Assembly: GCF_048403405.1 (NCBI RefSeq)
Contig: NZ_CP183129.1
DNA: 64,000 bases
DNA from: Escherichia coli
GTDB lineage: Bacteria; Pseudomonadota; Gammaproteobacteria; Enterobacterales; Enterobacteriaceae
Strand: one strand, 5' to 3'
The translations under genes were made by a program, and so were the position numbers. This document shows positions 11,673 to 37,740 of this stretch, in pieces (position 1 is the stretch's first letter; each line of letters opens with the position of its first letter). The notes under the pieces are model-generated. The model searched no databases and had not been told where the DNA came from. It was given only the letters and a program-made list of their open reading frames with translations.

Positions 11673-11674
11673 CG

Positions 11675-13777: not shown

Positions 13778-13779
13778 GC

Positions 13780-15199: not shown

Positions 15200-15202
15200 G
15201 AT

Positions 15203-18477: not shown

Positions 18478-18479
18478 TG

Positions 18480-19183: not shown

Positions 19184-19275
19184 TCCTGAAAAAATCGGGC
19201 GGTGGGTGCGCGGTGTAAACGGTCACGGAGTCAAACCGGAACACCGCGCACGCCGCCCGCTGACGGGGTCAGTCG

Positions 19276-20076: not shown

Positions 20077-20121
20077 TTGTTCTCTCCGTTACTGGCGGGC
20101 ATGATGCCCGCCGTGAGTTGA

Positions 20122-21174: not shown

Positions 21175-21197
21175 AAAAAATTTGCTCCTTTGTCTTA

Positions 21198-22067
21198 TCA
21201 GAAGTCAGCCAGTTGATCGGAGGCTGCGCCTGTTGCGGTGAACCGGTTCTGCGGATCGCCGTCCTGCGTGCGCAGTTTTTCCTTCAGTGCTGTCAGCTCT
21301 GTGGTCAGTAAAGTGATTTTCTGGCTGTCCTGCTGATGGCGGGTTTCCAGCGCATTAAAACGGTCGATAATGTCGGCCTGTGACGTTGCGACACCTTCCA
21401 CCGCTTCCTGAATACGGGAGAAACTGGCGTCATCCGCTTTGCGGCCACGGCCAATAATCCCCATAACGCGGTTAAACCACTGGGTGCCTTCTTCCTGACG
21501 TTGTTCGGTGAGTTCGATAAGTTCTGACTCCATAGCGGCGGTAAACATCGCCACGTCTCCCTGCTGACAGTTGAATGTCATCAGTTGCATACGTTGTTGT
21601 GCCGCAAAGGCCAGACGTTCCGTGCCCAGGCTGGCGGGGGTGTCGGTCATTGCCAGCCCGCGCAGGTAAGGGCCTCCCGTGATGGTTGACTGTGGTTCCA
21701 GCTCAATACTGGAGTAAATTTTTTTACCATCGTTAAGCAGGGACATCATGCGAGCGGTCGGCTCAATTTCGGCATACAGTGCCGTGCGACCTGCCAGCGG
21801 GCCATCGGTTATGTCTTCGGTGCTCAACCCCACAACATCGCCCATAGCGGAAAACTCGCTACCGGGGAGTGGTGACAGGATGTGCTCAATATTCACACGT
21901 GCACCATAAACGGACGGGTTATAACTGGTGGCGGCAGCTTTCAGCATGTCGCCGTTGATTTCGCGCCCGTCTGCCGTTACACCGGAGACAGCCACGCGAA
22001 ACTTTTTGCGGGATGTCTTTTTTTCATTAGCCATAGTTTTTGCCCCTCTGACTGGTTCTTCAGTCAT
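21198..22067 (-). CDS. O: Capsid scaffolding protein O
   Basis: 289 aa, first gene of the O operon, divergent from P. Confidence 0.85.
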   Translation of the reverse strand: MTEEPVRGAKTMANEKKTSRKKFRVAVSGVTADGREINGDMLKAAATSYNPSVYGARVNIEHILSPLPGSEFSAMGDVVGLSTEDITDGPLAGRTALYAEIEPTARMMSLLNDGKKIYSSIELEPQSTITGGPYLRGLAMTDTPASLGTERLAFAAQQRMQLMTFNCQQGDVAMFTAAMESELIELTEQRQEEGTQWFNRVMGIIGRGRKADDASFSRIQEAVEGVATSQADIIDRFNALETRHQQDSQKITLLTTELTALKEKLRTQDGDPQNRFTATGAASDQLADF

Positions 22068-22188
22068 GATGGCAAAGCGTAACAGGCTGATACAAAGGGC
22101 TTTTGTTGTAAGAAAACAGTCAGAACAGGGGGTTAAGGAGAACGGTTTCGCGCGCGGGTAATCTTCCTGTAATTACTCAGGGGGAGCA

Positions 22189-23940
22189 ATGATTCAGGAC
22201 GCTTTTGTGCGCCAGCGTGCGCGACAACTTTACTGGCAGGGTTATCCGCCCGCAGAAATATCACGTCTGATGGGAATAAACCCGAACACGATTTATGCGT
22301 GGAAAAAACGCGACCAGTGGGATGAAACGCCACCCGTGCAGCGTGTCACGCAGTCCATCGATGCGCGCCTCATCCAGCTTACTGAAAAACAGAATAAAAC
22401 AGGCGGTGACTTTAAGGAAATAGACCTGCTGACCCGGCAACTTAAAAAGCTGCATGATGGCCAGCCGGATGTGATGGCCGCAGGAAAGAAAGGCCGGGCG
22501 AAAAAACTCAAAAATCATTTCACGCCGGAACAGATTGCCGCACTGCGGGAAAAAATCATCAGCAGGCTGGAGTGGCATCAGCGGGGCTGGTTTGACTCCC
22601 TGACCCTTTGCAGGGAAGCCGGGATACGTAACAGGATGATCCTGAAATCCCGACAGATTGGGGCGACCTGGTATTTTGCACAGGAAGCACTGCTGATGGC
22701 GCTGCGTGACGATGTGGTGCAACCTTATCAGCGTAACCAGATTTTTTTGTCTGCGTCGCGTCGTCAGGCGTTCCAGTTTAAAAGCATTATTCAGAAGGCC
22801 GCGGCTGAAGTTGATGTGGAGCTGAAAGGGGGCGATAAAATCATCCTCTCCAACGGCGCAGAGCTGCATTTTCTCGGCACTTCTGCTGCGTCGGCACAGT
22901 CCTATACGGGCAATTTTTATTTTGATGAATTCTTCTGGGTCAGTCGCTTTGCTGAACTGCGCAAGGTGGCTGGCGCTATGGCAACCCTCAGCGGACTGCG
23001 GCGCACCTACTTCTCCACGCCATCCACCGAAACGCACGAGGCATACGCCTACTGGAACGGCGACCGCTGGAACGAGAAAAAGGCCACGCATAAACGCCAG
23101 CGTTTTTCTGTGGACTGGAAAACGCTGCATAACGGGCTTATCTGCCCTGACCGGACGTGGCGGCAAATTGTCACGCTGGAAGATGTGGTTAATCACGGCT
23201 GGAAACACACCGATATTGATGAAATTCGTGATGAAAACACCGAAGACGAGTTCCTCAATCTCTATATGTGTGAGTTTGTCCGCGAAGGGGAATCGGCATT
23301 TAACCTGAATATCCTGATTGGCTGCGGTGTTGACGGATACGACGACTGGAAAGACTGGAAACCTTTTGCTCCCCGCCCGATGGGGAATCGCCCGGTATGG
23401 ATTGGGTATGACGCAAACGGCAGCAGTGGCAACGGCGACAGCGGCGCTGTGTCCGTGGTGGTTCCTCCGGCTGTTCCTGGTGGCCGTTTTCGAACGGTGG
23501 AGACGCGACGCGTTCAGGGGCTGGAGTTTGAAGAACAGGCCAGAGTCATTGAAGAGTTCACGTGTCGCTACAACGTGGAACACATCGGCATTGATGTGAC
23601 GGGCGGGAACGGGGAGGCTGTTTATCAGATAGTGAAACGGTTTTTCCCTGCCGCTATTCCGTACACCTTCACGCTGTCATCAAAACGGTCGCTGGTACTG
23701 AAAATGCTGCAAATAATGCGTGCCGGGCGGTGGGAATACGATCGCGCCGAACGCGAGCTGGTCGCGGCCTTTAACGCCGTGCGTAAGGTGAAAACACCGG
23801 GCGGCTTTATCACTTACGAAACGGACCGCGCGAGGGGGATCAGCCACGGCGACCTTGCGTGGGCAACCATGCTTGCTGTCATTAACGAACCAATTGGCGG
23901 CGAAGGAGAAAACGAGCGTTTCACGGTTATGGAGTTCTGA
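22189..23940 (+). CDS. P: Terminase large (ATPase) subunit P
   Basis: 583 aa; N-terminus ...RARQLYWQGYPPAEISRLMGINPNTIYAWKKRDQWD as in P2 gpP. Confidence 0.9.
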   Translation: MIQDAFVRQRARQLYWQGYPPAEISRLMGINPNTIYAWKKRDQWDETPPVQRVTQSIDARLIQLTEKQNKTGGDFKEIDLLTRQLKKLHDGQPDVMAAGKKGRAKKLKNHFTPEQIAALREKIISRLEWHQRGWFDSLTLCREAGIRNRMILKSRQIGATWYFAQEALLMALRDDVVQPYQRNQIFLSASRRQAFQFKSIIQKAAAEVDVELKGGDKIILSNGAELHFLGTSAASAQSYTGNFYFDEFFWVSRFAELRKVAGAMATLSGLRRTYFSTPSTETHEAYAYWNGDRWNEKKATHKRQRFSVDWKTLHNGLICPDRTWRQIVTLEDVVNHGWKHTDIDEIRDENTEDEFLNLYMCEFVREGESAFNLNILIGCGVDGYDDWKDWKPFAPRPMGNRPVWIGYDANGSSGNGDSGAVSVVVPPAVPGGRFRTVETRRVQGLEFEEQARVIEEFTCRYNVEHIGIDVTGGNGEAVYQIVKRFFPAAIPYTFTLSSKRSLVLKMLQIMRAGRWEYDRAERELVAAFNAVRKVKTPGGFITYETDRARGISHGDLAWATMLAVINEPIGGEGENERFTVMEF

Positions 23941-24986
23941 TGAGCAGAAAAAATAAAAAAGTGCGCATGAGTTCACGCATTGATCTCGCTGATGCGCTCA
24001 GGAAAGAATCATCGCTCAGTGCATTCACATTTGATGGTCCTTATCGCCTGACCGGGCATGACCTGCTGGACAATATGTACTGTGCTGATAACGGGCGGTG
24101 GTATGAAACCCCGGTGGACTGGTACGGTCTGGCAAGAGCCGCCCGGCAAACGTCCTGGCATCAGTCTGCGCTTTACTTTAAGCGCAATGTATTACTCGGT
24201 TGCTACATCCCGCACCCGCTGCTTTCCCGGCAGGATTTCTCGGCGCTGGCGCTGGACTGGTTTGTGTTCGGTAACGCATTCCTTGAGCTTCGGAGCAATA
24301 TGCTCGGCGAACCGCTTAAATTACGGCACGCCCTGGCGAAATACATGCGACGCGGAAGCGATCTTGAATCATGGTGGTATGTGCAGGATGGCAAGGACGC
24401 GTTCCAGTTTCGCCCTGGCAAAGTGTGCCACCTGATGAATCCGGATATTAACCAGGAAATCTACGGCATGCCGGAATATCTTGGCGCATTACTCTCGGCC
24501 AGCCTTTCTCATTCGGCGGACATGTTCAGAAAACTGTACTACGACAACGGATCCCACGCCGGGTGCATCATCTACATCGGTGCAGCGCAGGTAAACCGCG
24601 AAAGCATGGACTCCCTGAAAGAAACGTTACAGGGTGCGCGTGGTGGTGGTGCATTTAAAAACGTGCTCATTCATGCGCCCAACGGGGGCAAAGAAGGGGT
24701 GCAAATTTTGCCGTTCCAGCAGATCACCGCAAAAGATGAGTTCATGAATGTTAAGGCGGCATCCCGTGATGATGTGCTGGCTGCGCACCGCGTTCCGCCG
24801 CAACTGATGGGGGCGATGCCGGGCGAAAAAAGTGCGTTTGGTGATGTGGAGAAGGCCGCGCGGGTTTACGCAATTAACGAGCTGATGCCCGTCATGGAGG
24901 CCATGAAGCACATCAATGACTGGCTTGGCGAAGAGGTGATCCGCTTTAACCCTTACGCACTGTTAGACACCCAGCCCACATCCTGA
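23940..24986 (+). CDS. Q: Portal protein Q
   Basis: 348 aa; ...NGRWYETPVDWYGLA...RVPPQLMG...GDVEKAARV...EEVIRFNPYALL as in P2 gpQ. Confidence 0.9.
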   Translation: MSRKNKKVRMSSRIDLADALRKESSLSAFTFDGPYRLTGHDLLDNMYCADNGRWYETPVDWYGLARAARQTSWHQSALYFKRNVLLGCYIPHPLLSRQDFSALALDWFVFGNAFLELRSNMLGEPLKLRHALAKYMRRGSDLESWWYVQDGKDAFQFRPGKVCHLMNPDINQEIYGMPEYLGALLSASLSHSADMFRKLYYDNGSHAGCIIYIGAAQVNRESMDSLKETLQGARGGGAFKNVLIHAPNGGKEGVQILPFQQITAKDEFMNVKAASRDDVLAAHRVPPQLMGAMPGEKSAFGDVEKAARVYAINELMPVMEAMKHINDWLGEEVIRFNPYALLDTQPTS

Positions 24987-25013
24987 CGCGCTTCGCTTGT
25001 CTGCTGCTTCGCC

Positions 25014-25036
25014 GGGGCATAAAAAATTTATGCCCC
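25014..25036 (+). terminator. Hairpin downstream of Q
   Basis: GGGGCATAAA-aaa-TTTATGCCCC inverted repeat just after the Q stop. Confidence 0.4.
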
Positions 25037-25289
25037 GACTCTCCAGCTCCTGTATCAGTCAGATAATTTCACGACGCTTTCCTGCTGATTGCCATCATCG
25101 ACAGTCAGACTCTTACGCAATCCCACCGCGTTGACTGCATGTTCTCGCCGTCTCAGTGCGATTTTGACGGCCTTACCTTTCACCCCATCAAATCAAAAGC
25201 CCTCACGTCTTTTTCACGCTCAGCGTGAGAAATACAGCCATTCTGTTGTGTCTCTGCGACATCGTTCAGGGGATGCTATTTACCCCCTG

Positions 25290-25325
25290 AAACGCGGGCT
25301 GTTCCCCCGTCACCTGCGCGCAGAA
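25290..25325. other. Candidate cos (cohesive-end) region
   Basis: Lies between portal Q and the accessory region, where P2-family cos sits; GC-rich 19-mer ending CAC followed by TGCGCGC resembles the remembered P2 cos end. Low confidence. Confidence 0.3.
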
Positions 25326-25537
25326 AAAGCGCGTTTTTTTGTGCACGCACGGATCCTTGACGGATCCAGCCGCCATGCGGGCCGGAAGGGTAAAAAGTCG
25401 TTCAAAAAAATTGTGCAAATTTGTGCACTTTTGTGCAGGTAAGCATGCCTATATATTTGACCGTGGCTTGCCTTTGATGTAGTTTATACGTCACAAAAAC
25501 CACAAAACGTGGTTATGATTTCTATGAGGGGGTTGAT

Positions 25538-25573
25538 ATGAAAAAAATGTATGATGAATTTGATGGTTTCTAA
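25538..25573 (+). CDS. Candidate 11-codon mini-ORF (MKKMYDEFDGF) upstream of the AT-rich cassette
   Basis: GAGGGGG ribosome-binding site 6 nt upstream of ATG; followed within 20 nt by a strong intrinsic terminator; TATGAT -10-like hexamer at 25513-25518. Confidence 0.35.
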   Translation: MKKMYDEFDGF

Positions 25574-25593
25574 GCTACGTTGACCTCTAATGA

Positions 25594-25620
25594 GGCGGGG
25601 ATTTGCTCCCCGCCTTTTTT
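25594..25620 (+). terminator. Intrinsic terminator / candidate attenuator hairpin
   Basis: GGCGGGGA-tttgc-TCCCCGCC stem followed by T6, 15 nt upstream of the next gene start. Confidence 0.6.
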
Positions 25621-25634
25621 ATGGATGAAATAGG

Positions 25635-26132
25635 ATGAACCCAATAACACTACAAATCATCAGCAATGCTATTGTTCTGCTTGGCGTTTTGGTTGCCATT
25701 GGAACCATTATCTACAATGTGCGTACCGCAAAAAAAACTCAAACGGCCAACTTTCTTTTTGAGAGTCGGCAAGATATGCAATATATAGAGTCATTGCATA
25801 CCCTGAAACAAGTGCATCGTTCAGGCAAATCATTTCGTTCTTATGTTTTTCCTTGTGATGGTTGCATAATAACAGATGAAGAAATGGCCGAGCGTCGAAA
25901 ATTTCAATATATTTTAAATTTTTACGAGCGAGTTGCTGTAAGTATTCGTGAAGGTATTTATGATGAAAAAATGATAAAAAGAACATCTTACACAACAGTT
26001 GTAGAGACATATGATATTGCCGAGCCATTAATTAAAGCAATCAGAGAAAGCATTAATTCGGATACTACATATCAAGAATTCGAATGGTTAGTAAGAAGAT
26101 GGAAAGCTAATCCTTTACGGAAAAACAAATAA
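25635..26132 (+). CDS. Hypothetical protein, single N-terminal transmembrane helix plus ~130-aa soluble domain (unassigned family)
   Basis: 165-aa ORF in strongly AT-rich DNA, where long open frames are unlikely by chance; N-terminal hydrophobic helix ITLQIISNAIVLLGVLVAIGTIIY. Confidence 0.75.
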   Translation: MNPITLQIISNAIVLLGVLVAIGTIIYNVRTAKKTQTANFLFESRQDMQYIESLHTLKQVHRSGKSFRSYVFPCDGCIITDEEMAERRKFQYILNFYERVAVSIREGIYDEKMIKRTSYTTVVETYDIAEPLIKAIRESINSDTTYQEFEWLVRRWKANPLRKNK

Positions 26133-26171
26133 TGTTTTACCCTTTAATTTACAAGTAACACAGGGGGAAGT

Positions 26172-27014
26172 GTGACACAGAATCCGTTTTCATTTTATGA
26201 CTTTTTGGGCTATCTAATTCCAGGTGGGTTATTCCTGTTTATCCTTTTTTTGTTTTCTATTGAAATTAACCCTGTTTATATAGAAGGTATTCTTAACCAT
26301 ATCCTGAAATATAAAGAAATAATAAGTGTATTTATATATGTGGCATTAATCGTTCTATCATATATTTCAGGTCACTTCATATCTATTCTATCATCCTGTT
26401 TAATTGAAAAATACATGAACAGTAAACTTGGGTATCCTTCAATTTATCTGTTTTCTAAAAGAAGCTCCCTGAAAATAAAACGACATAATACTAAGTTCAG
26501 TATAGTTAATTTTATTCGTGGAGTTTTTTTATTTCCTGTATCAGCTTTTGATAAAGCAGAACATCATAAAACCACACTGCATTCTATACTTATTAAAGTC
26601 TTTTGGCCGCAAATACGAGATGGTTATATAAATGTTTTTTCTGTATCTACGCTATATCGACGTAAGGGCTTGAGGGGCAATCTTTTTCGCCTTGCTTATC
26701 ATTATGTGTATGAACATTCTAAAAATCATCAGGTGAAAATGCAAAACTATGTTGCTTTGTATGGTTTTTGTAGAAACATTACATTTGTTTTTCTCGCTTC
26801 AGTCTGGTTGCTTATGTTCCTGCTCCTTCTATCCTTTTTAATAGATATAAATATCAGACTGTTACCTTTTTGTTTTCTTCTCTTGTTTTGTATTGCTGTA
26901 TCCCGAGTATTTTATTATGGTTTTGTTAAGTATTATCGCCGCTATTCTCTTGAGGTTTTAATGGCATTTGCGGTACTTCAGCACGATAAAAAAACTTCGG
27001 CAATTTCATCATGA
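26172..27014 (+). CDS. Hypothetical polytopic inner-membrane protein (unassigned family)
   Basis: 280-aa ORF, GTG start after CAGGGGGAAG ribosome-binding site; several long hydrophobic segments at the N- and C-termini; AT-rich; 39 nt downstream of the preceding gene. Confidence 0.75.
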   Translation: MTQNPFSFYDFLGYLIPGGLFLFILFLFSIEINPVYIEGILNHILKYKEIISVFIYVALIVLSYISGHFISILSSCLIEKYMNSKLGYPSIYLFSKRSSLKIKRHNTKFSIVNFIRGVFLFPVSAFDKAEHHKTTLHSILIKVFWPQIRDGYINVFSVSTLYRRKGLRGNLFRLAYHYVYEHSKNHQVKMQNYVALYGFCRNITFVFLASVWLLMFLLLLSFLIDINIRLLPFCFLLLFCIAVSRVFYYGFVKYYRRYSLEVLMAFAVLQHDKKTSAISS

Positions 27015-27023
27015 TTTGAAACA

Positions 27024-27046
27024 TTGGCACCCTGTTAGCAAGGGTG
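27024..27046. terminator. Hairpin between the convergent cassette and parR-like gene
   Basis: GGCACCCT-gttagca-AGGGTGCC perfect stem. Confidence 0.4.
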
Positions 27047-27097
27047 CCAGAATGATGTGTTGGTCTGTATTTTATTAGTTCACATACAATTATCAGA

Positions 27098-27412
27098 TTA
27101 TTCTGGGAATAAGGTCTGAATATTCTTTTTTATTCTATAAAAATTGCATTCAACTCCGCTAGGCTGATTATCCTGGTATGTTTCCTTGATGCTAACGGTA
27201 TTGAAGGGGAGGTTGTCCTCTGGCCATTCGGCCATCCAGTAGGCAAATGCTGGGTTGCGCTTTATGAGCGCTAGCCCAGCCAGAAAGGCCGCGCGTTGCG
27301 CGCGGCTGCGTTCGGAGGCTGGTAGGCTATCGAGGTAATTGCACGCCTCCTGTTCACTCTTGACGGCGGCGGGCTTCAGATAGAAACTTATCCGTCTGGT
27401 TGGTGTCGTCAT
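27098..27412 (-). CDS. ParR/StbB-like partition adaptor
   Basis: Start trimmed to MTTPTRRISFYLKP...; YLDSLPASERSRAQRAAFLAGLAL resembles the R1 ParR motif as remembered; lies directly downstream of the ParM-like gene. Confidence 0.65.
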   Translation of the reverse strand: MTTPTRRISFYLKPAAVKSEQEACNYLDSLPASERSRAQRAAFLAGLALIKRNPAFAYWMAEWPEDNLPFNTVSIKETYQDNQPSGVECNFYRIKKNIQTLFPE

Positions 27413-27416
27413 TGGT

Positions 27417-28376
27417 TTACTCCTTGTCCATTGCGTACAGCCCATTAACCAGAGCAAACTGTGGCACCCCGTCCGCGATGAAAGTCGCATTAACTCCGCA
27501 GACTTCGCGGATAGCGGGTGCCACAATCTCCGCCCCTCCACCGACAACCATCACCCGCCCGTAACCCGAAAAAACCGCCAGCGCGCGGATCACGCGTTGT
27601 TTCAGTGTTTCTTCCTTTTCACGAATAACCGCCATCAGGCTGGCGTAATGCGCGTCATTGTGGATGTGCTGGCGCAGCCAGGCTTCATCATGGCGATGTT
27701 CGATAATGGTATTGGCGATGTGGTGACTGGTGCGCATACCGTTAGTGGCCATCACCGACAGTACGGCATCGGCCATCAGGGAAACGCCTACGTGTGGATC
27801 GCAAAACACCTGGCTGATACCTGCCAGTTGCCCTTGAACCTTTGCCACATCCAGCGTGGTTCCGCCTAAATCCACAATCAGCAGGGATTCAAACGGACTC
27901 ATGTCAGCCAGTGCTTTAAAGCCAGCCGGAATGGATTCAGGCATAACCCGCACGTTACGGATAGTGAATGCTTCGCCGTTCTGGTACTCCACCGAGCGCA
28001 TAACGTTCGCTTTTTTGCGGTTGATGTTGGCCATGTCCGGCTGTGCGTTTGTCTCGAAATACTCGCTCAGTGGCAGGGTGACAACCACATCCACCTCTTG
28101 TGGCGTGATGCCTGATTTGACCAGCGCGTGATGAATGGCGATTACATTCACATCGCTGTACTGGTATTGCGTGTCGGTCGTCTGGACAAAGCGATCGCTG
28201 ACCGGATCAAAACCATAGCGCACGCCATCAAGCATGTAGTTCGCGGGCTGCATGCCACCGAACGGCGCAGACCATTCCGACTTGAAGCTGTTCGGGCTGA
28301 TGGCGTTGCGGCGTTCGCCATTCTCAGTCCATGCCAGCTTGATGTTGGTGGAGCCGTCGTCGATACAAATTTTCAT
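27417..28376 (-). CDS. ParM/StbA-like actin-type partition ATPase
   Basis: 319 aa; IDDGSTNIKL, ISPNSF, QYSDVNV..HHAL, RKKAN, PESIPAG, LIVDLGGTTLD, GVSL, VVGGGAE and LVNG motifs as in plasmid R1 ParM (from memory). Confidence 0.8.
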   Translation of the reverse strand: MKICIDDGSTNIKLAWTENGERRNAISPNSFKSEWSAPFGGMQPANYMLDGVRYGFDPVSDRFVQTTDTQYQYSDVNVIAIHHALVKSGITPQEVDVVVTLPLSEYFETNAQPDMANINRKKANVMRSVEYQNGEAFTIRNVRVMPESIPAGFKALADMSPFESLLIVDLGGTTLDVAKVQGQLAGISQVFCDPHVGVSLMADAVLSVMATNGMRTSHHIANTIIEHRHDEAWLRQHIHNDAHYASLMAVIREKEETLKQRVIRALAVFSGYGRVMVVGGGAEIVAPAIREVCGVNATFIADGVPQFALVNGLYAMDKE

Positions 28377-28402
28377 GTCGATTTTCCTTATGTTGGTTAA
28401 TT

Positions 28403-28520
28403 AACCGTTTACGGGATTTTTAAATCCCGCTTTCGCCTGTTTTGTGCGCGCTTCATATATCGCGGCGCGTTTTTTGCTCATTTACGGGATTTGTGAATCC
28501 CGTTTCTGTCTGTTTTTTGT
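28403..28520. repeat. Two ~40-bp direct repeats, each with an internal palindrome (candidate parC-like centromere/operator)
   Basis: TTTACGGGATTT(T/G)T(A/G)AATCCCG...CTGTTTT occurs at 28403-28445 and 28477-28520, upstream of the ParM-like start and overlapping the 3' end of gene A. Confidence 0.45.
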
Positions 28521-31293
28521 TTCCACTGGTCAGGCCAGTCCTCAGCAGGTTTGCTTTGCGGCGGGCGCGTTCAGTGGTTTCTCTGATTCTCTGTGCGTGC
28601 TCTGCGTCACGAATGGCGCGCAGCATGTCAGAAAGCACGGTAACGGGTGTTTTCATGGTGTTCTGGACCTGCTGAAGTGTGGATGCCAGGCGTGCGGCGG
28701 CTTCGGGGTCTGATGCCCCGAGCTGTGCCAGATAGCTGGAGACCGGGTTATGGCGGATCTCCGTGCTGCTTACGCCGTGATTACGGCTCAGGCGCTGCCA
28801 GAGCTGCGTGATTCGGCTGTCCGGGCGGGCATCCGGTTTGCGTACAATTTCAAATCCCTGCGGTGCAATGATGCTGCCGTCAACGTACAGACTGCCGCCC
28901 CGTAACAGGTGCTGCATCTGTTGTTCACCGATATGCAGGCCGAGAGATTCAGCAGACTCCCGCCATTCTTTAGCGAGTAATTCGTGGTTATCAGGCAAAG
29001 GCCGCTGCTGTTTGCGGCTCTGTGTCCAGCTCTGCATTTCATCGCTGCTGTTTTTTGCCTGTTTGTCACGAAGCGAACGCATCAGCGCCCGGCGTTCGTG
29101 TCGTTTCAGTGAGCGCATCCATTCGTTCACTTCAACGCCGTTAGGGAGCTGCGGCCACGGTGCTGGCCGTTCTTCCGGCTGTTCTGTCCCGTTGTTGTCC
29201 GTTTCCTGTACACGGGGACAGTTATTGCCACGAGTCCAAGGGGCGGCAGGGCCGCCCTGAAGGTCAAAACCATTTTCGCGGGCGCTGTCTTCCGCTTCCG
29301 GTTTGCGTCTTACCAGCTTCCAGTTATCCGGATGCGTGCACACACGGGAGGATTCCCCGATGAGTGGTGACCAGATCCCGTAAATCTGTACGCTCTGTTC
29401 GCCGTAATCGTTCATCTCATCGGCGAGGTCGTAGGCGGTGCGAATCAGGTAGTCTTTGCGTGGAACAAGTACGCCGCCCTGTTTCTCTATGTAGGTGGCA
29501 AAACATCCGGCATCAGCGGCGGCAAGAACCGCATCCATTGCGTCATCCTTCAGCCGTTGCGGGCCTTCCGGGTTGCGTGCCATCTGGCTGGCAAGGCGGC
29601 GCAGTTCACGCCATACCTGGCGGGAGGGGATGCCAAAGAACTGGAACTGGCGGACCCGGTGAAGGCGCGCCCAGCCGATGGCGCGTTCCACGCTCTCGGC
29701 CATTGATTTTCCGGTTTCGTGGTCAACGCGTGGCTTGCCCGTTTTCGGGTCGATGCCATCCACGGCACGGCTGTCCAGGTTTTTCCCGATGTAGGTGGCG
29801 ATGTAGCTGGTCGGTGTGCCTTTTGAGCCGTCGACGTACTCCGCCTTAAAGCGTGGGGTAATATCATCACCCAGCTCGTGACGATCTTCCTGAATGGCAA
29901 TATCGCGGGTGTGGGACACAATAGTGTCGATTTCTTCCGGATGAGCAAAGACCATCATATGCCAGTGCACGGTGCCGTCATGGTGAGGCTCCACCGTGCG
30001 GATGCCATACCAGCGCAGGCCGTCGCGGTTCAGTTTCTTGCGGACCGCCGCAAAAAACGTGTTAACCAGGTAATCGCTGGAGTCGCGCATGGTGGCCCCG
30101 TTCCATTTGGGATTCGGATGACCGTTCTCTGTTGTGGCGTGGTATTTTGACGGGCAGGTGACAGTCAGAAACACCGCTCTGTCGCCACGGGCTTCGGCCA
30201 GAAGTTCCAGCCCCTTCATGGTGGCCATCATTTCTGCCTTACGGTGAACCGGGTTACTTACTCCCGCGTAATACACTGTCTCGAGATCAATCGTGAACCC
30301 ATCTTCGTTTTCCAGCATGAAACTTTTCAGGAAATCGCGTGTTTTCTCGCGCTGTGCGCGAAACTCGCTTAATGCGTCCTGGCTCAGATAGGGCGATGTT
30401 TTTCTGGAAACCAGACAGGCGGCGCGGAGTTGTTCTTCTCTCCACTCGCAACGTAACAGCCACAGTTTGCGTTTCCACCATTCCGCACAGGTCAGGCGAA
30501 GGATTGCGCCCGGCAGCAGCTCCGTGTCCGGTTCGTTCCTCCGGTCTTTATCTGTTGTCAGTGCGTCATAATGTGGAGGCATGATGTGCAGGTGTAACGC
30601 CATGCGGGCCAGCATCTGATACGCCTTCAGCGTTACATCCATGGTCAGTTCGCCATCGGTCGCGCCAAAGCCATCGCAGAGTTTTTCGAAGGTGCTGCTG
30701 AACATCGCCGCCGTCATGGTGGCCAGCGTCTGTATCTGGTGTTTGTTGAGCTGCGGCAGGTAAAGCAAATCGTCCAGGCGTTCGCGTCCGGCAAGGGAGC
30801 GATAACCAGGTGTCAGCCAGCGCCCGTCAGTGCGATCCAGACGTTCGAATATTTTGCGCAGGGTTCCGCGTGCATAGCGTTCCGCCTGCCAGGTCTTTTT
30901 GCCTTTCTGACGATCGGCTTCCTGCTTCTTGCGCAGGAAAGAGAGGTGGCGGCTCAGAGGTTCTCGCAGATAACCGGGAAGCGCCTTCAGTGTGGCAAAG
31001 GCACGGGCTACCGGGTCTTGTTCTGTTGCCCGGCGCTTACTGATGATGCTCTGTGCCAGCTTTTCACGCTGTCCGGCTTCCTCAAGGGATGCCATGAGTT
31101 TTTTACCCATGGCGGATTGTGCGAAAAAGGCTTCTTCCTTCGCTTCCTGTTCTTCCTGTGCCCTTTTGTCCGCCTCAAGGTAGTAACGGATGGCGCGTTG
31201 CAGGTCGGTTTCAGTTTCCTGCCTGCGCTCCGTAAATCTGGCCGGATCAATAGCTGGTCGTGGTTCATTCCAGCTCCATGCAAACGCACTCAT
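28453..31293 (-). CDS. A: Replication initiation protein A (rolling-circle HUH endonuclease)
   Basis: Long ORF with HWHMMVF HUH-like motif and P2 gpA-like region; start trimmed to MSAFAWS, abutting the upstream gene stop. Confidence 0.85.
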   Translation of the reverse strand: MSAFAWSWNEPRPAIDPARFTERRQETETDLQRAIRYYLEADKRAQEEQEAKEEAFFAQSAMGKKLMASLEEAGQREKLAQSIISKRRATEQDPVARAFATLKALPGYLREPLSRHLSFLRKKQEADRQKGKKTWQAERYARGTLRKIFERLDRTDGRWLTPGYRSLAGRERLDDLLYLPQLNKHQIQTLATMTAAMFSSTFEKLCDGFGATDGELTMDVTLKAYQMLARMALHLHIMPPHYDALTTDKDRRNEPDTELLPGAILRLTCAEWWKRKLWLLRCEWREEQLRAACLVSRKTSPYLSQDALSEFRAQREKTRDFLKSFMLENEDGFTIDLETVYYAGVSNPVHRKAEMMATMKGLELLAEARGDRAVFLTVTCPSKYHATTENGHPNPKWNGATMRDSSDYLVNTFFAAVRKKLNRDGLRWYGIRTVEPHHDGTVHWHMMVFAHPEEIDTIVSHTRDIAIQEDRHELGDDITPRFKAEYVDGSKGTPTSYIATYIGKNLDSRAVDGIDPKTGKPRVDHETGKSMAESVERAIGWARLHRVRQFQFFGIPSRQVWRELRRLASQMARNPEGPQRLKDDAMDAVLAAADAGCFATYIEKQGGVLVPRKDYLIRTAYDLADEMNDYGEQSVQIYGIWSPLIGESSRVCTHPDNWKLVRRKPEAEDSARENGFDLQGGPAAPWTRGNNCPRVQETDNNGTEQPEERPAPWPQLPNGVEVNEWMRSLKRHERRALMRSLRDKQAKNSSDEMQSWTQSRKQQRPLPDNHELLAKEWRESAESLGLHIGEQQMQHLLRGGSLYVDGSIIAPQGFEIVRKPDARPDSRITQLWQRLSRNHGVSSTEIRHNPVSSYLAQLGASDPEAAARLASTLQQVQNTMKTPVTVLSDMLRAIRDAEHAQRIRETTERARRKANLLRTGLTSGNKKQTETGFTNPVNEQKTRRDI

Positions 31294-31679
31294 GGCTGGT
31301 ATCCCGTCACGCGCTGCCACTCCTGCGAGAAGAGGGCGGAAAGGCGGTTAAATTCAGCGGTGTATTCACTCAGCGAGGCACACCCGCCAGCAGTGCGATG
31401 CGCCAGCATTGCTGCAAATACGGAGGCCGGAGAGTCGTAATACGCCAGCAGTGATTCGCCGTGCGGTGTCAGGCAGTGCAACGCCAGTCCGTGTGGTGTG
31501 AAGTCCACGCGGTAGCAGTCGTCTACTGTGAAATAAAGGGTGTCTGCATTCTCCGGTTTTGTGGTGCGTGCTCTGTTGTCACGACCACGGATGTAGAGAT
31601 CAAATAACCCCTGAAGAACGGGAGCCAGACGGGTGTCCTGTGTGCGCACCCATCTTGTGAAGTCATGAGCGTCAATCAT
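31290..31679 (-). CDS. Hypothetical early-region protein (position of P2 B / orf80-83)
   Basis: 129-aa ORF ending at the A start. Confidence 0.55.
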   Translation of the reverse strand: MIDAHDFTRWVRTQDTRLAPVLQGLFDLYIRGRDNRARTTKPENADTLYFTVDDCYRVDFTPHGLALHCLTPHGESLLAYYDSPASVFAAMLAHRTAGGCASLSEYTAEFNRLSALFSQEWQRVTGYQP

Positions 31680-31751
31680 GCTGCAATTCTCTTTACTACA
31701 GATGTGCGAAGGCCTCCCGCCGCAAGGTGCAGAAAAGGCCCGGAACAGGAA

Positions 31752-31982
31752 TTAATGGAGTTTGTTTTGCTGCTGGATGAGCTGTTGAAGCTCGTGCAGA
31801 TCATCCGCCAGATAGCTGAAAACAGAGGCGGAATAAATGTTTGATAGTGCGTGGCTGCGCTCATGCAGCATATTGATGTGCATGATTTGCGCGACGCGTG
31901 ATGCGCGGGAAAGTCTGCGGTTGATTTCAGTCTGGATGTGACGACGCTCCGCGATAGCGCGGTGCTGTTTGCGGTCTGCCAT
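31752..31982 (-). CDS. Hypothetical small protein
   Basis: 76-aa ORF in the early operon; no family recognised. Confidence 0.4.
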   Translation of the reverse strand: MADRKQHRAIAERRHIQTEINRRLSRASRVAQIMHINMLHERSHALSNIYSASVFSYLADDLHELQQLIQQQNKLH

Positions 31983-32161
31983 GGTGTGGCCTCTTTGCTC
32001 GGTGATAGAAATAACTCACCATCCAGAGTTGAGAATCTCGGGGTGGCGAGACGTACAGGGTTCTCAACACCGGAGAGCAAAGAATCCGGCCCGACCGAAG
32101 TCGGCCCCGTACGCCCCGCCATAATTCTGACGCGAAAAAGACGTGGCAATACAGTACGCAC

Positions 32162-32186
32162 AAAAAAACCGCTTGCGCGGTTATGC
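32162..32186 (-). terminator. Intrinsic terminator on minus strand
   Basis: Minus-strand hairpin AACCGC-GCAA-GCGGTT followed by T7. Confidence 0.45.
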
Positions 32187-32304
32187 GCTTTGCTCTGTAT
32201 CGGGTTGAGAATCCCGGCACCCGTTTTATGAGGTGCAGCGGAAATGTAACCTGACCGATTGAGGCATGGCAAGCGGTTTTTTTGTGTGTGCATGTTCTGG
32301 TTTC

Positions 32305-32604
32305 TTACTGGTTCAGAAAAAAATCAAAAACGTTATCGATGCGTTGCAGCAGCTCTTGCTGCATTGCTTCCGGCGTTTCCGGTTCGCCAGGTGCCCCCAG
32401 CGTTGCGCAGAAATCAGCGATTTCATGATGGAGCGTGAGGCGAATGGCAGGAGCCGTGGTTCTGGCGTGCTCCAGCTGATCCAGCAGTGCCAGCACAGCA
32501 GACGGCGAGAGCATTGCGCGAAATGCCAGTAATTTTTGAGGCGTTGCCATTCGTTGCAGGGCAAATGCCAGTTCGCGTAGCTTCTGGTGGTTGATGGTGC
32601 TCAT
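32305..32604 (-). CDS. Hypothetical early-region protein
   Basis: 99-aa ORF overlapping its neighbour by 4 nt. Confidence 0.55.
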   Translation of the reverse strand: MSTINHQKLRELAFALQRMATPQKLLAFRAMLSPSAVLALLDQLEHARTTAPAIRLTLHHEIADFCATLGAPGEPETPEAMQQELLQRIDNVFDFFLNQ

Positions 32605-32846
32605 GCTCTGGCTTCCTTCAGTAGCTGGTTAAACATGTTGGTAAGTGGATTGCCGCACCCGAACGGCATCGGGTTTATCTGGTAAGAAAAGCGACCGCCT
32701 GTTTTGCGCTCTTTTCTTATGACTGAACCGCTGCGCCAGAGTCGGCGTAACTCCGCATTAATGGCTGTGGTTGGGGTATTCAGTGCTGCGGCGATTTCTC
32801 CACCGCTACACCCCGGATTGGCAGCGATATAATCCAGAATGGTCAT
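32601..32846 (-). CDS. Hypothetical early-region protein (possible winged-helix DNA-binding)
   Basis: 81-aa ORF, operon-style overlaps on both sides. Confidence 0.55.
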   Translation of the reverse strand: MTILDYIAANPGCSGGEIAAALNTPTTAINAELRRLWRSGSVIRKERKTGGRFSYQINPMPFGCGNPLTNMFNQLLKEARA

Positions 32847-33046
32847 CTGCGTGACTCCTGTACCTGTCGGATAAGGTTCACCTGCACCACATTCGTGGCG
32901 CAGAAGTAAGTGCCGTCAGTGAGATAGATGTGATGTGCATCCTTTTCTGAACGGTGTTTGTCGATTGTGGTAATCAGGCGTTCGTCGACTTCGTATTCAC
33001 GTCCTCTGGAGGTAAAACGAACGACAGGAAAATGCTTAATTGCCAT
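32843..33046 (-). CDS. Hypothetical early-region protein
   Basis: 67-aa ORF. Confidence 0.5.
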   Translation of the reverse strand: MAIKHFPVVRFTSRGREYEVDERLITTIDKHRSEKDAHHIYLTDGTYFCATNVVQVNLIRQVQESRR

Positions 33047-33132
33047 TACGCCTCCTTGGCGTATGCGAATACCTCCGCGAATGCGGATTGTTTTTACATT
33101 TTCTTATTTAACCTGTGGTTTTATTTGCTCTG

Positions 33133-33246
33133 TTATTCGCCAGTGAAAAAGCGTTCAATCTTTTTTACTGAATGAATAATTCGCATAATCCCAATGGCGC
33201 AGGCCACAGAAATAATCAGAACAAGCCATGAGATAAATATACTCAT
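33133..33246 (-). CDS. Small hydrophobic peptide (37 aa), translationally coupled
   Basis: Manual translation MSIFISWLVLIISVACAIGIMRIIHSVKKIERFFTGE; its ATG overlaps the TGA stop of the upstream 80-aa gene (ATGA); below ORF-track cutoff. Confidence 0.4.
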   Translation of the reverse strand: MSIFISWLVLIISVACAIGIMRIIHSVKKIERFFTGE

Positions 33247-33485
33247 GCGATATTCCCCAGCTTATACGGTTCAATATGTTCCCCGCATTCTGCGGCACAG
33301 ATTAGCTCGGAAAGTTCGTTAAGTGCATCCAGATCATCAGCGTAAAAAGCCACGTCATACAGACTCCGGATTGCCCTGGTCAATGAGTCACGGGCTGCAC
33401 GTTCAGCATGAGAGCCTGATGCACTTAAGCGAAAATAAAAACGCTCAAGTGCTTTGTTGATGAGTGTTTTATATTCTTTGCCCAT
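33243..33485 (-). CDS. Hypothetical early-region protein
   Basis: 80-aa ORF. Confidence 0.55.
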   Translation of the reverse strand: MGKEYKTLINKALERFYFRLSASGSHAERAARDSLTRAIRSLYDVAFYADDLDALNELSELICAAECGEHIEPYKLGNIA

Positions 33486-33496
33486 TGCAACACCCT

Positions 33497-33784
33497 TTAA
33501 TCTGCTTTCTGAATTTCAGCTTCTGAATCCATGCAAATAATTTCGATATAGGGTTCATTGCCATTAGCCTGGCGCGCTTTTTCAGCTTTGCTAATGATTT
33601 CTCGTACGGTCTGGTACGGAAGTTCCACAAGCAGTCGCGTGCCGTTCAGATAAACGTAAGTGGCTTCGTCGGCTCCGTTTTTACCCGCCGGAGCCACTCC
33701 ATCAATAGCGGATGCGCGTAATAACAGTTCACCGCGAAAATCAATAAAACGGATAAATACACCTTGTGCATGGTCTTTGGTCAT
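33497..33784 (-). CDS. Hypothetical early-region protein
   Basis: ORF track frame 33497..33844, start trimmed to the internal Met (MTKDHAQ) to avoid overlap with the upstream gene. Confidence 0.5.
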   Translation of the reverse strand: MTKDHAQGVFIRFIDFRGELLLRASAIDGVAPAGKNGADEATYVYLNGTRLLVELPYQTVREIISKAEKARQANGNEPYIEIICMDSEAEIQKAD

Positions 33785-33794
33785 AAAGCACCTG

Positions 33795-34136
33795 TTATAA
33801 ATCAGCCTGTTTAATAAAACTTTGTCCGCGAAGCAGACGATCAACCGTGCGTAGTGCTTCGTATAATGTGAAATCCTGCCCGAACTGATTTTCGCCGCTG
33901 CTTAGAGCAAAAATGCGGTTTCCAGTAAACGGGTTGCGTGGGCATTTGTGGACCACGATTCCAGCTTTCTCAATCAGCCAGGCATGCTCGCCGATTTGTT
34001 TTACTGGGTAGCCATCCGGCGTTGCGTGTGTATCACTCAGGCTGTAGCGGATGTTGCTGCGTGATGCACTGGTAGCGAAACGATTAGCGTGACGTTCAGC
34101 ACCATTACGAAAGCGTGAATTACGTTGCTGTTTCAT
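33795..34136 (-). CDS. Hypothetical early-region protein
   Basis: 113-aa ORF. Confidence 0.5.
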   Translation of the reverse strand: MKQQRNSRFRNGAERHANRFATSASRSNIRYSLSDTHATPDGYPVKQIGEHAWLIEKAGIVVHKCPRNPFTGNRIFALSSGENQFGQDFTLYEALRTVDRLLRGQSFIKQADL

Positions 34137-34388
34137 GTTAAAGACTCTGTACAGATTTAATTATTCCGGCATAGCGGCCGAACTCAAAATATTTGCGATT
34201 AAATCGCATCGCATTGTTTTCACGTTGTGCGGACTGCTGGTTCATTTTCGTTTGCCTCCGCACATGAGAATTACGCCGCTTAAGAGGTAACCGAAGTTAA
34301 TTGATAGTATTACAATTAACATAAGGTCCAATTTGTCCATGCCACACATAATTACCCTCATTGCAGTAGTTGTGGTTTATCAGGTTTC

Positions 34389-34595
34389 TCACCCGATAAA
34401 CCAGATAACAAACGCTATAAACATCGCCCCAATAGCTGCCGGGAAAAGCCCTTTGGTATAAGCGGCGATATATTCAATGCTGAGTTCAATAAAGCGTTCT
34501 TCATGTCCCGTTAACTTACGAAACAAATAGATCGCTATTACGCCTATCTCAATAAAAACAAGGGTCAGAATGGCGCTGATGATATGGCTGGTCAT
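34389..34595 (-). CDS. Small membrane protein (two transmembrane helices)
   Basis: 68 aa, hydrophobic; immediately downstream of cox. Confidence 0.5.
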   Translation of the reverse strand: MTSHIISAILTLVFIEIGVIAIYLFRKLTGHEERFIELSIEYIAAYTKGLFPAAIGAMFIAFVIWFIG

Positions 34596-34601
34596 TTATG
34601 A

Positions 34602-34889
34602 CTAAAGCCCCAGCCACAACAACCATGCATCGCGGCGTTCTTTCGGTTGCTCAAAAAACGCTTTGCGCATGCCTTCGTTAAATGCTGGCAGATATACCCA
34701 GTTTTCTGATGCACGCGTCTTTACTGAACCTGGTTTCACAAAGTCAATTGTCGGTAGCTTTGCTGCGTCAATCATGGTTCTGACTGTGGATTCCTTGCGG
34801 CCGATCATCTTGGCGAATAGTTGATATGGCACCGCTTCAAGTGGATATGGTGCTACCTGAATGAAGCCCCCAAGCTCTGATTCGCTCAT
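34602..34889 (-). CDS. cox: Cox (excisionase / early-promoter repressor)
   Basis: 95 aa; ...PYQLFAKMIG...WVYLPA...WLLWLGL resembles P2 Cox; divergent from C. Confidence 0.8.
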   Translation of the reverse strand: MSESELGGFIQVAPYPLEAVPYQLFAKMIGRKESTVRTMIDAAKLPTIDFVKPGSVKTRASENWVYLPAFNEGMRKAFFEQPKERRDAWLLWLGL

Positions 34890-34954
34890 TGTGGTAATCT
34901 CCCTAATTCGTTCGAATGGCTCAAAATGGCTTATATCGGCTTATTTGAGTGTTT

Positions 34955-35010
34955 TTATGTTTGTGCCCGATGTGGCATGTTGCGATGGAGGATATGCCCG
35001 ATATGGCATC
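34955..35010. promoter_or_regulatory. Immunity switch region with direct-repeat operator candidates
   Basis: GTGCCCGATGTGGCATG and ATGCCCGATATGGCATC direct repeats about 32 bp apart between divergent cox and C (P2 C binds direct repeats). Confidence 0.4.
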
Positions 35011-35323
35011 TTTGTCAAGCATGGGTGAAAAATTTCGCCTGATTCGTGAAGCAGAAGGTATGACCCGCCAGGAGTTTGCGGATTGTGTTGGGCTGCCTTA
35101 TGGGACGGTAACTAACTATGAGGTGAGGGGGAAGCAAGTAACAGAGGGTGCCTTACTTAAGGTTACGAAACACCCTAAATTTAAGAAATATGCTTATTGG
35201 TTATCAACAGATGAAACGATGCCGGAGGTTGGGCAAATTTCTCCGGCTCTCTCTCTTGATGGTTCCTGCAATTCGGAGGGAGATCGTGTTTCAACCGAAA
35301 CAATCCAAAAATTATCCCGCTGA
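35003..35323 (+). CDS. C: Immunity repressor C (helix-turn-helix)
   Basis: ...MTRQEFADCVGLPYGTVTNYE... helix-turn-helix region as in P2 C; start ambiguous among 35003, 35021 or upstream Met codons. Confidence 0.8.
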   Translation: MASLSSMGEKFRLIREAEGMTRQEFADCVGLPYGTVTNYEVRGKQVTEGALLKVTKHPKFKKYAYWLSTDETMPEVGQISPALSLDGSCNSEGDRVSTETIQKLSR

Positions 35324-35419
35324 GGCCAGAAAACTGGTTAGACCTGCTTTTTGTCTGGTCTGATTATTGCTGGAAAGAGGCTGGAGAAATTGTAGAGCGG
35401 TTCATTGGAGGGCTTCGCA

Positions 35420-36424
35420 ATGTCGATTAAGAAGCTCGAAGATGGTCGTTATTTGCTGGACATCAGGCCGAACGGACGCAAGGGAAAGCGCGTGCGTAAG
35501 GTATTTGACAAAAAATCGGTAGCGGTGGCCACTGAACGCTACATCATGGCGAACGCTGAAAAGCGGGAATATATACAGGGCTACCGTGATCGTCGAACGC
35601 TAAATGATTTGCTTGAGTTGTGGTGGATGTATCACGGCCAGCACAGGCGTAAGGCAGAAGAAGACCGAAAACAACTGCGCAACATAATCAATGAGCTTGG
35701 CGCTGATATGCAGGCTGTGGATCTTGATAAGCTAAAAATTATCGCGTGGCGTTCTCAAAAGATAGCTGATGGATTGAAACCGTCATCTGCTAACAGATAC
35801 ATGAATCGGTTATCCGGAATGTTTACCGTACTGAAGAAAATAGGCCTCTGGGATGCAGAACATCCGGTAAGGGGAATTTCTATTCTTTATGTATCTCCAC
35901 GAGAAATGGCTTTCCTGTCCCAGAAGGAAGTGGCGTTATTGCTCGATACACTGGAGGGCGATTACTGGCGTGTTGCGCTTTTGTGTTTAAGCACGGGGGC
36001 GCGCTGGAGTGAAGCCTGTAAGCTTCGTGGTGAACAGATAGTTCATAACCGTGTAACGTTTCTTGAAACCAAAAATGGCCGAAAGAGAACAGTGCCAATT
36101 TCGCAGGCAGTTTGTGAGGCGATCAAAACCAGAGAAACAGGCGGCTTGTTTGAGGTGAAGTACCGGGAATTCTGCTTGGCGCTGAAAAGAGTTAAGCCCG
36201 ATTTGCCAAAAGGCCAGGCTGCACATGTGCTGCGGCATACGTTCGCCAGCCATTTTGTGATGAACGGAGGAAACATTATTGCGCTTCAGAAGATTCTTGG
36301 CCACGCAACCATTCAGCAAACAATGGCATATGCACATTTTGCACCGGATTACCTGCAGGATGCGGTGGCCCTTAATCCGCTGAAAGGTGGCGTGAGTGTC
36401 CACGCAGTGTCCACGGGGGATTAA
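35420..36424 (+). CDS. int: Tyrosine integrase (P2 Int-like)
   Basis: MSIKKLEDGRYLLDIRPNGRKGKRVRKVFDKK...LSTGARWSEA...HVLRHTFASHF...MAYAHFAPDYLQDA closely parallels P2 Int. Confidence 0.9.
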   Translation: MSIKKLEDGRYLLDIRPNGRKGKRVRKVFDKKSVAVATERYIMANAEKREYIQGYRDRRTLNDLLELWWMYHGQHRRKAEEDRKQLRNIINELGADMQAVDLDKLKIIAWRSQKIADGLKPSSANRYMNRLSGMFTVLKKIGLWDAEHPVRGISILYVSPREMAFLSQKEVALLLDTLEGDYWRVALLCLSTGARWSEACKLRGEQIVHNRVTFLETKNGRKRTVPISQAVCEAIKTRETGGLFEVKYREFCLALKRVKPDLPKGQAAHVLRHTFASHFVMNGGNIIALQKILGHATIQQTMAYAHFAPDYLQDAVALNPLKGGVSVHAVSTGD

Positions 36425-36582
36425 TTTTATATAGCCTGAAACGGCTTAAAGGGCGATACTGAATAACAATTTTTCAGTATTGCCCGTCTAAATGGTTATG
36501 TTGTTATCTGTATGATTATGAATGTTTTTTCAGATTAAACAGCAGTTTGCAAATGGGCGTTTGTTAATAAAGGAGCCTTAGA

Positions 36583-37740
36583 TTGTCAGAGACTGAAAAA
36601 TGGTTAAAAATCCTTGTTGATGAAAATATGCCTTATGCCCGCGACTTATTTAGCCGTTTGGGTGAGGTGACCGCGGTTCCCGGGCGTCCAATTCCCGTGG
36701 CTCAACTGGCAGACGCGGATGCGATGATGGTGCGTTCGGTCACGAAAGTGAATGAATCTTTGCTGGCAGGAAAACCCATTAAATTTGTTGGCACTGCCAC
36801 CGCGGGGACCGACCATGTCGATGAAGCGTGGTTAAAGCAGGCGGGAATTGGTTTTTCCGCGGCACCTGGCTGTAATGCGATTGCGGTGGTGGAATATGTT
36901 TTCTCCTCACTGCTGATGCTTGCCGAACGCGATGGATTTTCACTGCACGAGCGTACCGTGGGGATCGTGGGCGTTGGTAACGTTGGTCGCCGTTTACAGG
37001 CGCGACTGGAAGCGTTAGGGATTACAACCTTGCTTTGCGATCCGCCCCGCGCCGACCGTGGGGATGAGGGGGATTTCCGCTCGCTGGATGAATTAGTTCA
37101 GCATGCGGATATTCTGACTTTCCATACGCCACTCTTTAAAGATGGTCCGTACAAAACGCTGCATCTGGCGGATGAAAAACTGATCCGCAGCCTGAAGCCG
37201 GGAGCGATTCTGATTAACGCCTGCCGTGGCGCAGTTGTCGATAATACCGCCCTGCTGACCTGCCTGAACGAAGGCCAGAAGTTAAGCGTAGTGCTGGATG
37301 TCTGGGAAGGCGAACCGGAACTTAACGTGGAATTGCTGAAAAAAGTGGATATCGGCACGCCGCATATCGCAGGCTATACCCTGGAAGGTAAAGCACGCGG
37401 TACTACGCAAGTGTTTGAAGCTTATAGCAAGTTTATTGGGCATGAACAGCACGTTGCGCTGGATACATTACTGCCCGCGCCAGAGTTTGGTCGCATTACG
37501 CTGCATGGCCCGCTCGATCAGCCAACGCTGAAAAGGCTGGTGCATTTGGTGTATGATGTGCGCCGCGATGACGCACCGCTGCGTAAAGTCGCCGGGATAC
37601 CGGGTGAGTTCGATAAACTGCGCAAAAACTATCTTGAGCGCCGTGAATGGTCATCTCTGTATGTGATTTGTGATGACGCCAGCGCGGCATCATTGCTGTG
37701 TAAACTGGGTTTTAACGCCGTTCATCATCCGGCACGTTAA
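36583..37740 (+). CDS. pdxB: Erythronate-4-phosphate dehydrogenase
   Basis: Full-length match to E. coli PdxB pattern ([15 protein letters not shown]...); exact start codon uncertain. Confidence 0.9.

Follow-up and report, generated by a model that had tools for sequence, protein, structure and literature searches.

Among the integrating elements that replace the end of a gene are the islands found in the 5′ end of dusA, and phage 21 and e14, which enter the 3′ end of icd. In all of these, the core lies inside conserved coding sequence, the element brings with it a substitute gene end, and the host gene survives. A comparable case has been described for phiSM, a phage of Citrobacter rodentium (Shae_phiSM, OR565851; J Bacteriol 201:e00638-18). 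Its attP carries the 17-bp sequence ATCCTTGTTGATGAAAA, and the matching attB is found in K-12 pdxB, 6 bp in from its 5′ end (Magaziner et al. 2019, PMC6456863). Integration of phiSM into K-12 pdxB has been demonstrated experimentally; it takes away the pdxB start codon and native regulation, an in-frame phage TTG is found downstream of AAGGAG, and MG1655(phiSM) still grows on minimal medium (PMC6456863). In C. rodentium, the native site of the phage has been described as traF (PMC6456863). As a published case, the insertion in pdxB shows cleanly how a phage can enter conserved 5′ coding sequence and restore the start of the gene. In P2-type phages more generally, the two sides of the attP core each bear two or more direct arm repeats, with the consensus tgTGGaCa (Nilsson et al. 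2011, PMC3448106).

The window, by which we mean the whole 64-kb stretch of Escherichia coli DNA analyzed here, holds a natural E. coli lysogen of the phiSM phage type. We are highly confident that both the kind of element and the site it occupies are known, the insertion type having already been published. With equally little doubt, it arose through Int-mediated, site-specific recombination of a temperate P2-family phage of the phiSM/P88_4B11 type into pdxB. The exchange would take place between the attP core and an identical 17–20-bp sequence spanning codons 2–8 of the host pdxB. Integration would part pdxB from its own start codon and promoter, both of which would be left beside flk past the left window edge, while the int-side phage arm would supply a Shine-Dalgarno (SD) sequence, a TTG start, and seven in-frame codons. 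The lysogen would then encode PdxB in full, with a short stretch added at its N terminus, and would still be prototrophic for vitamin B6.

The prophage is P2-like, of the phiSM/P88_4B11 type (genus Xuanwuvirus, Peduoviridae), and measures ~36.9 kb in total, with a core-to-core distance of 36,883 bp. Its in-window part occupies 1..36606, and it continues ~256 bp beyond the left window edge. Window positions 1–25000 are 96–97% identical to phages 520873, P88_4B11, phiSM, and PhiR44_2 over 80–90% of this window stretch (97% over 86% in the case of phiSM), and a near-identical lysogen (L003) carries a complete P2-type gene annotation. From that annotation and the identity to Peduoviridae, a C repressor–int operon faces att, cox is divergent, and the late genes are of P2 type. 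Mapped onto the window ORFs, the L003 annotation places cox (“Cox family DNA-binding protein”) at 34602–34889 (−) and the C-type repressor, an HTH protein, at ~35003–35323 (+); together they form a lysis-lysogeny switch at 34602..35323, upstream of int. The late-gene activator ogr is found at 1715..1975 (−; Pfam Ogr_Delta, E 5e-14).

Compared with its relatives, the prophage is most easily described through what it shares with phiSM: the 17-bp core in the pdxB 5′ end, the start made of TTG and AAGGAG, VasI-like and zinc-ribbon cargo beside attP, and an int and arm region that is 96.9% identical at the nucleotide level. The two differ in the length of the junction identity, which is 20 bp in the window prophage and was reported as 17 bp for phiSM, and in their setting, the window prophage being resident in E. 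coli whereas phiSM has its native site, described as traF, in C. rodentium. P88_4B11 (Xuanwuvirus P884B11, LR595891), PhiR44_2, and Chuche have the same integrase (92–99% nucleotide identity) and the same arm with SD and TTG. P88_4B11 differs from the window in one base of the core and in ~1.7 kb of additional genes that separate its zinc-ribbon gene from hok, and Chuche in having a DNA methyltransferase and Com instead of the VasI-like and zinc-ribbon genes. Coliphages P2 and WPhi resemble the window phage in a C-int operon transcribed towards att, a divergent cox, an Int of ~54% identity, and two direct repeats per arm, but they differ in core and target, the target of the window phage being the 5′ end of a coding sequence, which it rebuilds. 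Set against the dusA islands, phage 21, and e14, the window phage has a different integrase lineage and a different target gene, and instead of a copy of the gene end it brings just an SD, a start codon, and seven unrelated codons.

Integrase, attP arms, and the right junction

The P2-type tyrosine integrase (334 aa; Pfam Int_N, E 6e-23, and Phage_integrase, E 1e-22) is encoded at 35420..36424 (+) and ends in a TAA at 36422–36424. Int is ~54% identical in amino acids to the WPhi and P2-type Int proteins, and the gene is 97–99% identical in nucleotides to the int genes of phiSM, P88_4B11, and PhiR44_2; the stretch from int to the core is 92–99% identical to five phage records (PhiR44_2, two of P88_4B11, phiSM, and Chuche). 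Within the last codons of int, at 36397..36415, sits a pair of direct arm-type repeats CGTGGACA on the minus strand (36397–36404 and 36408–36415, with an 11-bp period), predicted to bind Int; each copy fits the P2-type consensus tgTGGaCa at 7/8 positions. The other arm, which is off-window and was read in L009, carries CGTGGACA and TGTGGTCA, which correspond to this pair in both orientation and period (11 bp). On sequence grounds, the Int/att module belongs to the P2 type, and integrase class, common core, arm repeats, and operon layout all fit this assignment.

When integrases were sampled from IMG/VR, most of the predicted prophage contigs ended at the int stop codon. In the contigs that retain some flank (L022 and L039), the core is at the same position, and the junction sequence of L022 is the same as in the window. 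A separate group of IMG/VR sequences (L049–L053, at ~2460–3980) encodes an Int that is 80–82% identical in amino acids with a different C-terminal tail; downstream of int these have ogr- and hok-like ORFs in place of a pdxB core, so that a close relative of this Int must use a different attachment site.

The attR core of the window is the 20-bp sequence AAAATCCTTGTTGATGAAAA at 36607..36626 (+), corresponding to pdxB codons 2–8, and the published 17-bp phiSM core matches exactly at 36610–36626. The first-pass annotation had recognized a prophage inserted next to pdxB and had looked for its attachment site at 36425–36582, between int and pdxB; the core begins 25 bp to the right of this interval. 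The P2-like prophage with int at the junction is borne out, but the insertion lies inside pdxB, in codons 2–8, rather than beside it. The boundaries were fixed by the alignment to an empty flk-pdxB site that the same annotation had proposed as a check. In a survey that searched window 36100–36900 against about 5,425 complete E. coli genomes, the whole int-pdxB junction was covered in 302, and in the ~5100 genomes that have no such junction, the alignment starts only at 36607 (query position 508). With a flk-side query, empty-site genomes align up to the last core base and no further. These two limits, 36607 on the right and the last core base on the flk side, identify a 20-bp duplication at the junction.

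In a K-12-like genome (L001), flk and pdxB are divergent neighbors 98 bp apart, and pdxB starts with GTG AAA ATC CTT GTT GAT GAA AAT ATG, while the window reads ...AAGGAGCCTTAGATTGTCAGAGACTGAAAAATGGTTAAAAATCCTTGTTGATGAAAATATG... across the junction. From this comparison and the limit of the empty-site alignments, host identity begins at pdxB codon 2, and 36425–36606, including the whole of the interval first considered, is therefore not host DNA. This stretch (36425..36606, +) is the int-proximal arm of attP, and in the genome records of Chuche and P88_4B11, it runs without a break into the core and on into the flk-side arm, the three together making up attP. The arm is nearly invariant across 6 sequences. 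The 20-bp core AAAATCCTTGTTGATGAAAA is common to attB (L001), attL (L002, L003, L009, L010), and attR (window, L003, L022), and is also found in the attP of phage Chuche; in P88_4B11, the attP core has one mismatch.

An insertion into the flk-pdxB intergenic region that leaves pdxB intact, with att within 36425–36582, was the model of the first reading, and has in its favor that the pdxB-frame ORF from 36583 looks intact and is separated from int by a gap of 158 bp. The gap itself is real, as the Int ORF stops at 36424 and the longest pdxB-frame ORF begins with the TTG at 36583. Yet empty-site genomes share nothing with 36425–36606, free phage genomes carry this segment as uninterrupted phage DNA, the K-12 GTG start and native upstream region sit on the flk side of the prophage, and the first 8 codons of the window pdxB ORF are unlike those of K-12. 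Aligning empty with occupied sites already refutes the model, and we give it virtually no chance; insertion into codons 2–8 of pdxB accounts for the junction.

Two further statements of the earlier annotation hold. Host synteny does continue rightward, with ORFs in K-12 order to the right of pdxB (annotated pdxB, usg, and truA in a near-identical genome), and ARAGORN found no tRNA or tmRNA gene in the 64-kb window. An insertion of the tRNA- or tmRNA-targeting type (186-type, Fels-2/phiNP-type) was considered and rejected, given the core in a protein-coding 5′ end and the ARAGORN result.

The start and transcription of pdxB in lysogens

What the int-side arm brings to pdxB is a replacement 5′ end at 36570..36606 (+). 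AAGGAG at 36570–36575 is followed after seven bases by TTG at 36583–36585, and the codons SETEKWL then lead in frame into pdxB codon 2 (KILVDEN...). The resulting chimeric pdxB spans 36583..37740 (+), with its first 24 nt derived from the phage and the remainder from the host gene, and its first 8 codons differ from K-12. The SD and TTG are kept in 6/6 related sequences, and the sole leader difference among relatives falls at codon 7, where the window has TGG (Trp) and phiSM, P88_4B11, PhiR44_2, and Chuche have GGG (Gly). Positions 1–378 of the NCBIfam PdxB model align to residues 8–385 of the window ORF. Solved PdxB structures from Salmonella, Vibrio, and Pseudomonas (3OET, 5DT9, and 2O4C) start at the same MKIL(V/I)DENMPYA, so the core lies where the coding sequence is conserved, and keeping it requires a start further upstream. 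We infer that the TTG at 36583 is the start codon in use. PGAP, on the other hand, starts the pdxB of lysogens at the internal Met9 (window 36628, L003 40741), giving a protein of 370 aa against 385 aa for the ORF from SD and TTG, which retains the conserved KILVDEN strand. The Met9 start of PGAP/RefSeq is probably a systematic start-site miscall in ~300 lysogens, such that pipelines shorten PdxB to 370 aa in these strains despite the phage-supplied start codon at hand.

As for pdxB transcription in lysogens, consensus scans of 36200–36800 and a looser scan found no sigma-70-like promoter of at least 9/12 between the int stop and the TTG; the only 9/12 match lies downstream of the TTG, and a weak 8/12 candidate (TCTAAA-18-TATGAT) is at 36487–36516. 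The promoter proposed for phiSM, with −35 TTGCAA and −10 TAAAGG (PMC6456863), corresponds in the window to 36547–36552 and 36568–36573. Its −10 overlaps the SD, and a transcript from that promoter would thus be without an SD. After int, a hairpin at 36451–36485 (13-bp stem) stands as the only strong structure, and both the MFE and centroid folds contain it; no T-run follows, it did not score as a terminator, and neither an IHF consensus nor an intrinsic terminator was found in the scans of 36200–36800. Transcription of pdxB probably comes from read-through of the C-int operon or from a weak arm promoter. Given the lack of a promoter of at least 9/12 upstream of the TTG, and a hairpin with no T-run, read-through from C-int is a plausible source of pdxB mRNA. 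Because pdxB is without its native promoter in lysogens and the arm has no good one, we also considered the stronger proposal that pdxB is transcribed mainly by the lysogenic C-int operon, reading past the U-tract-less hairpin at 36451–36485; we regard this as a tentative and rather doubtful possibility. If it were true, vitamin-B6 synthesis would be tied to the regulatory state of a prophage in ~5% of E. coli strains, and prophage read-through would replace the normal growth-rate regulation of pdxB.

These same observations bear on whether integration harms the host, i.e., whether pdxB is started at Met9 or poorly expressed and the prophage is mildly harmful rather than neutral. The PGAP call of a 370-aa PdxB in lysogens and the lack of a convincing promoter upstream of the TTG would agree with such harm. 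We nonetheless consider it unlikely, as MG1655(phiSM) grows on minimal medium (PMC6456863), AAGGAG-N7-TTG is kept and in frame in all relatives examined, residues 2–8 fall within the conserved PdxB profile and the solved structures, and the insertion is carried by 302 genomes from diverse hosts. A functional gene rebuilt from the phage-supplied start remains our preferred reading.

The left end, flk, and phage cargo

At the other end of the prophage, the second core copy falls outside the window: near-identical lysogens have it 257–276 bp to the left of position 1, and in the same kind of genomes the start codon of flk is ~380 bp to the left of that position. The left end was read in four such lysogens (C9, SWHEFF_68, O111:H11 88.0502, and UID2404240038), of which O111:H11 88.0502 and UID2404240038 are ~100% (99.9–100%), though not exactly, identical over window 1–3300. 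In all four, the left flank consists of flk, the native pdxB upstream region, GTGAAAATCCTTGTTGATGAAAA, and then new sequence, AAATGATGACTTAATTT..., which runs into the stop codon of a 297-aa gene named “TagO” by PGAP; window position 1 is 110 nt inside this gene. From these other genomes, 99.9–100% identical over the left 3.3 kb, we infer the off-window position of attL. The flk-side remnant of pdxB is a 14-codon stub (VKILVDEKNDDLIY*) with the native promoter.

The absence of flk from the left flank had been noted earlier, and flk is indeed not in the window. Nevertheless, it is not absent from the locus: judging by the near-identical lysogens, flk is cut off by the window edge, and its apparent loss is an effect of where the window was cut. 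In the same way, the search for a direct repeat shared by 36425–36582 and 1122–1714 had come up empty, and rightly so. AAAATCCTTGTTGATGAAAA is present in a single copy in the window (0.01 expected by chance), and no further core copy, such as a composite element or a left att near 1122–1714 would show, was found anywhere in the window with up to 3 mismatches allowed. The repeat could not be found in the first reading because the partner core copy is outside the window. The supposition that the prophage ends within 1122–1714 does not hold, as the prophage runs off the left window edge. For annotation of the window, the right core is thus fixed at 36607–36626, and the left window edge is inside the prophage.

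The left 1.2 kb is AT-rich, with 34–37% GC against 50–58% in the phage body. It begins with a gene for a VasI-domain protein, PGAP “TagO”, at 1..784 (−), of which the final 110 nt including the stop codon are off-window (full length 297 aa). This protein matches Pfam VasI PF11319 (E 5e-25) and PHROG 1848, which has no assigned function, and scores 75 bits against NCBIfam TIGR03360, under the 124-bit cutoff. At 789..1121 (−) follows the gene of a 110-aa protein that has a zinc ribbon at its N terminus (Pfam Zn_Ribbon_1, E 1e-7; PHROG 6586, E 2e-41, with no assigned function), which is annotated in L002, L003, and L009. Next comes a type I toxin-antitoxin locus of the hok/sok type at 1384..1670 (−), with the hok ORF at 1384–1524 (Pfam HOK_GEF, E 4e-7) and a sok-like RNA region at 1511–1670, which matches Rfam RF01794 sok with 43 bits (E 1e-7), under the gathering score of 59.

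One way to read this stretch is that the prophage ends near 1300 and that, between it and flk, the VasI-like and zinc-ribbon genes belong either to an island of their own or to the host. In about 1300 E. coli genomes whose P2-like prophages sit elsewhere in the chromosome, the match to the window starts only at ~1309, GC falls sharply to the left of ~1200, and Chuche has other genes in the slot, all of which would suit an end near 1300. Against it, the window holds no other core-like sequence at the 3 mismatches allowed, in the P88_4B11 and phiSM records the two genes fall between attP and hok/ogr, each of the proteins has a match among phage protein families, and the attP arm with its Int arm repeats and terminator hairpin directly adjoins the stop codon of the VasI-like gene. 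We consider an end near 1300 very improbable. In P88_4B11 and phiSM, the gene order is int, arm, core, arm, VasI-like gene, zinc-ribbon gene, hok, and ogr, with the same VasI-like (894-nt) and zinc-ribbon (333-nt) genes in both, while the methyltransferase and Com of Chuche occupy the slot between attP and hok/ogr, which marks it as variable cargo space. The AT-rich genes and the Hok/Gef ORF of the left flank, then, are as real as first described, but by the evidence of gene order in free phages, they and hok/sok are phage cargo beyond ogr and not a displaced host neighborhood. The AT-rich genes at the left window end fill the variable slot between attP and ogr. A “TagO” gene at the pdxB locus is accordingly a piece of phage cargo and does not point to a type VI secretion island. 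PADLOC gave no match to an anti-phage defense system for either the VasI-like or the zinc-ribbon protein.

Several other features of the prophage deserve mention. The segment at 8906–12649 looks like an invertible tail-fiber segment resembling Gin/Cin-type host-range switching: inverted repeats of 62 nt, 79% complementary, lie at 9544–9605 and 12588–12649, two opposed tail-fiber-assembly genes lie between them (10583–11110, +, and 11139–11672, −), and a recombinase-family gene (~8906–9493, −) adjoins the candidate segment. At 27098–28376 (−), the L003 annotation names a ParM-type segregation ATPase gene and a small “plasmid partitioning/stability” gene; the pair adjoins the replication endonuclease gene and is not what an integrating P2-like phage usually carries. 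After the portal gene come three cargo ORFs (25089–27014, +), in the slot that is occupied by old/tin in P2. They include a DUF4760 protein at 25635–26132 (E 2e-34) and a 280-aa protein at 26172–27014 with only a weak PADLOC match to Csx27 (E 1.6e-5), and this post-portal cargo may be an uncharacterized defense module.

Some of the records consulted also show annotation irregularities. In the phiSM record OR565851 (L007), product labels at 165–3403 look shifted by one gene, with “tagO” placed on the 333-nt zinc-ribbon ORF and “ogr” on a 1110-nt ORF of gene D size, and the ends of the record overlap within the att core. In L009/L010, PGAP splits gene D at 4518–5371 (window 2018–2871) into an 801-nt “VgrG/Pvc8 family” gene and a pseudogene fragment, and calls of this style recur in several otherwise near-identical lysogens. 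The gene D ORF of the window is intact, and is 99% identical to a 369-aa protein of strain C9.
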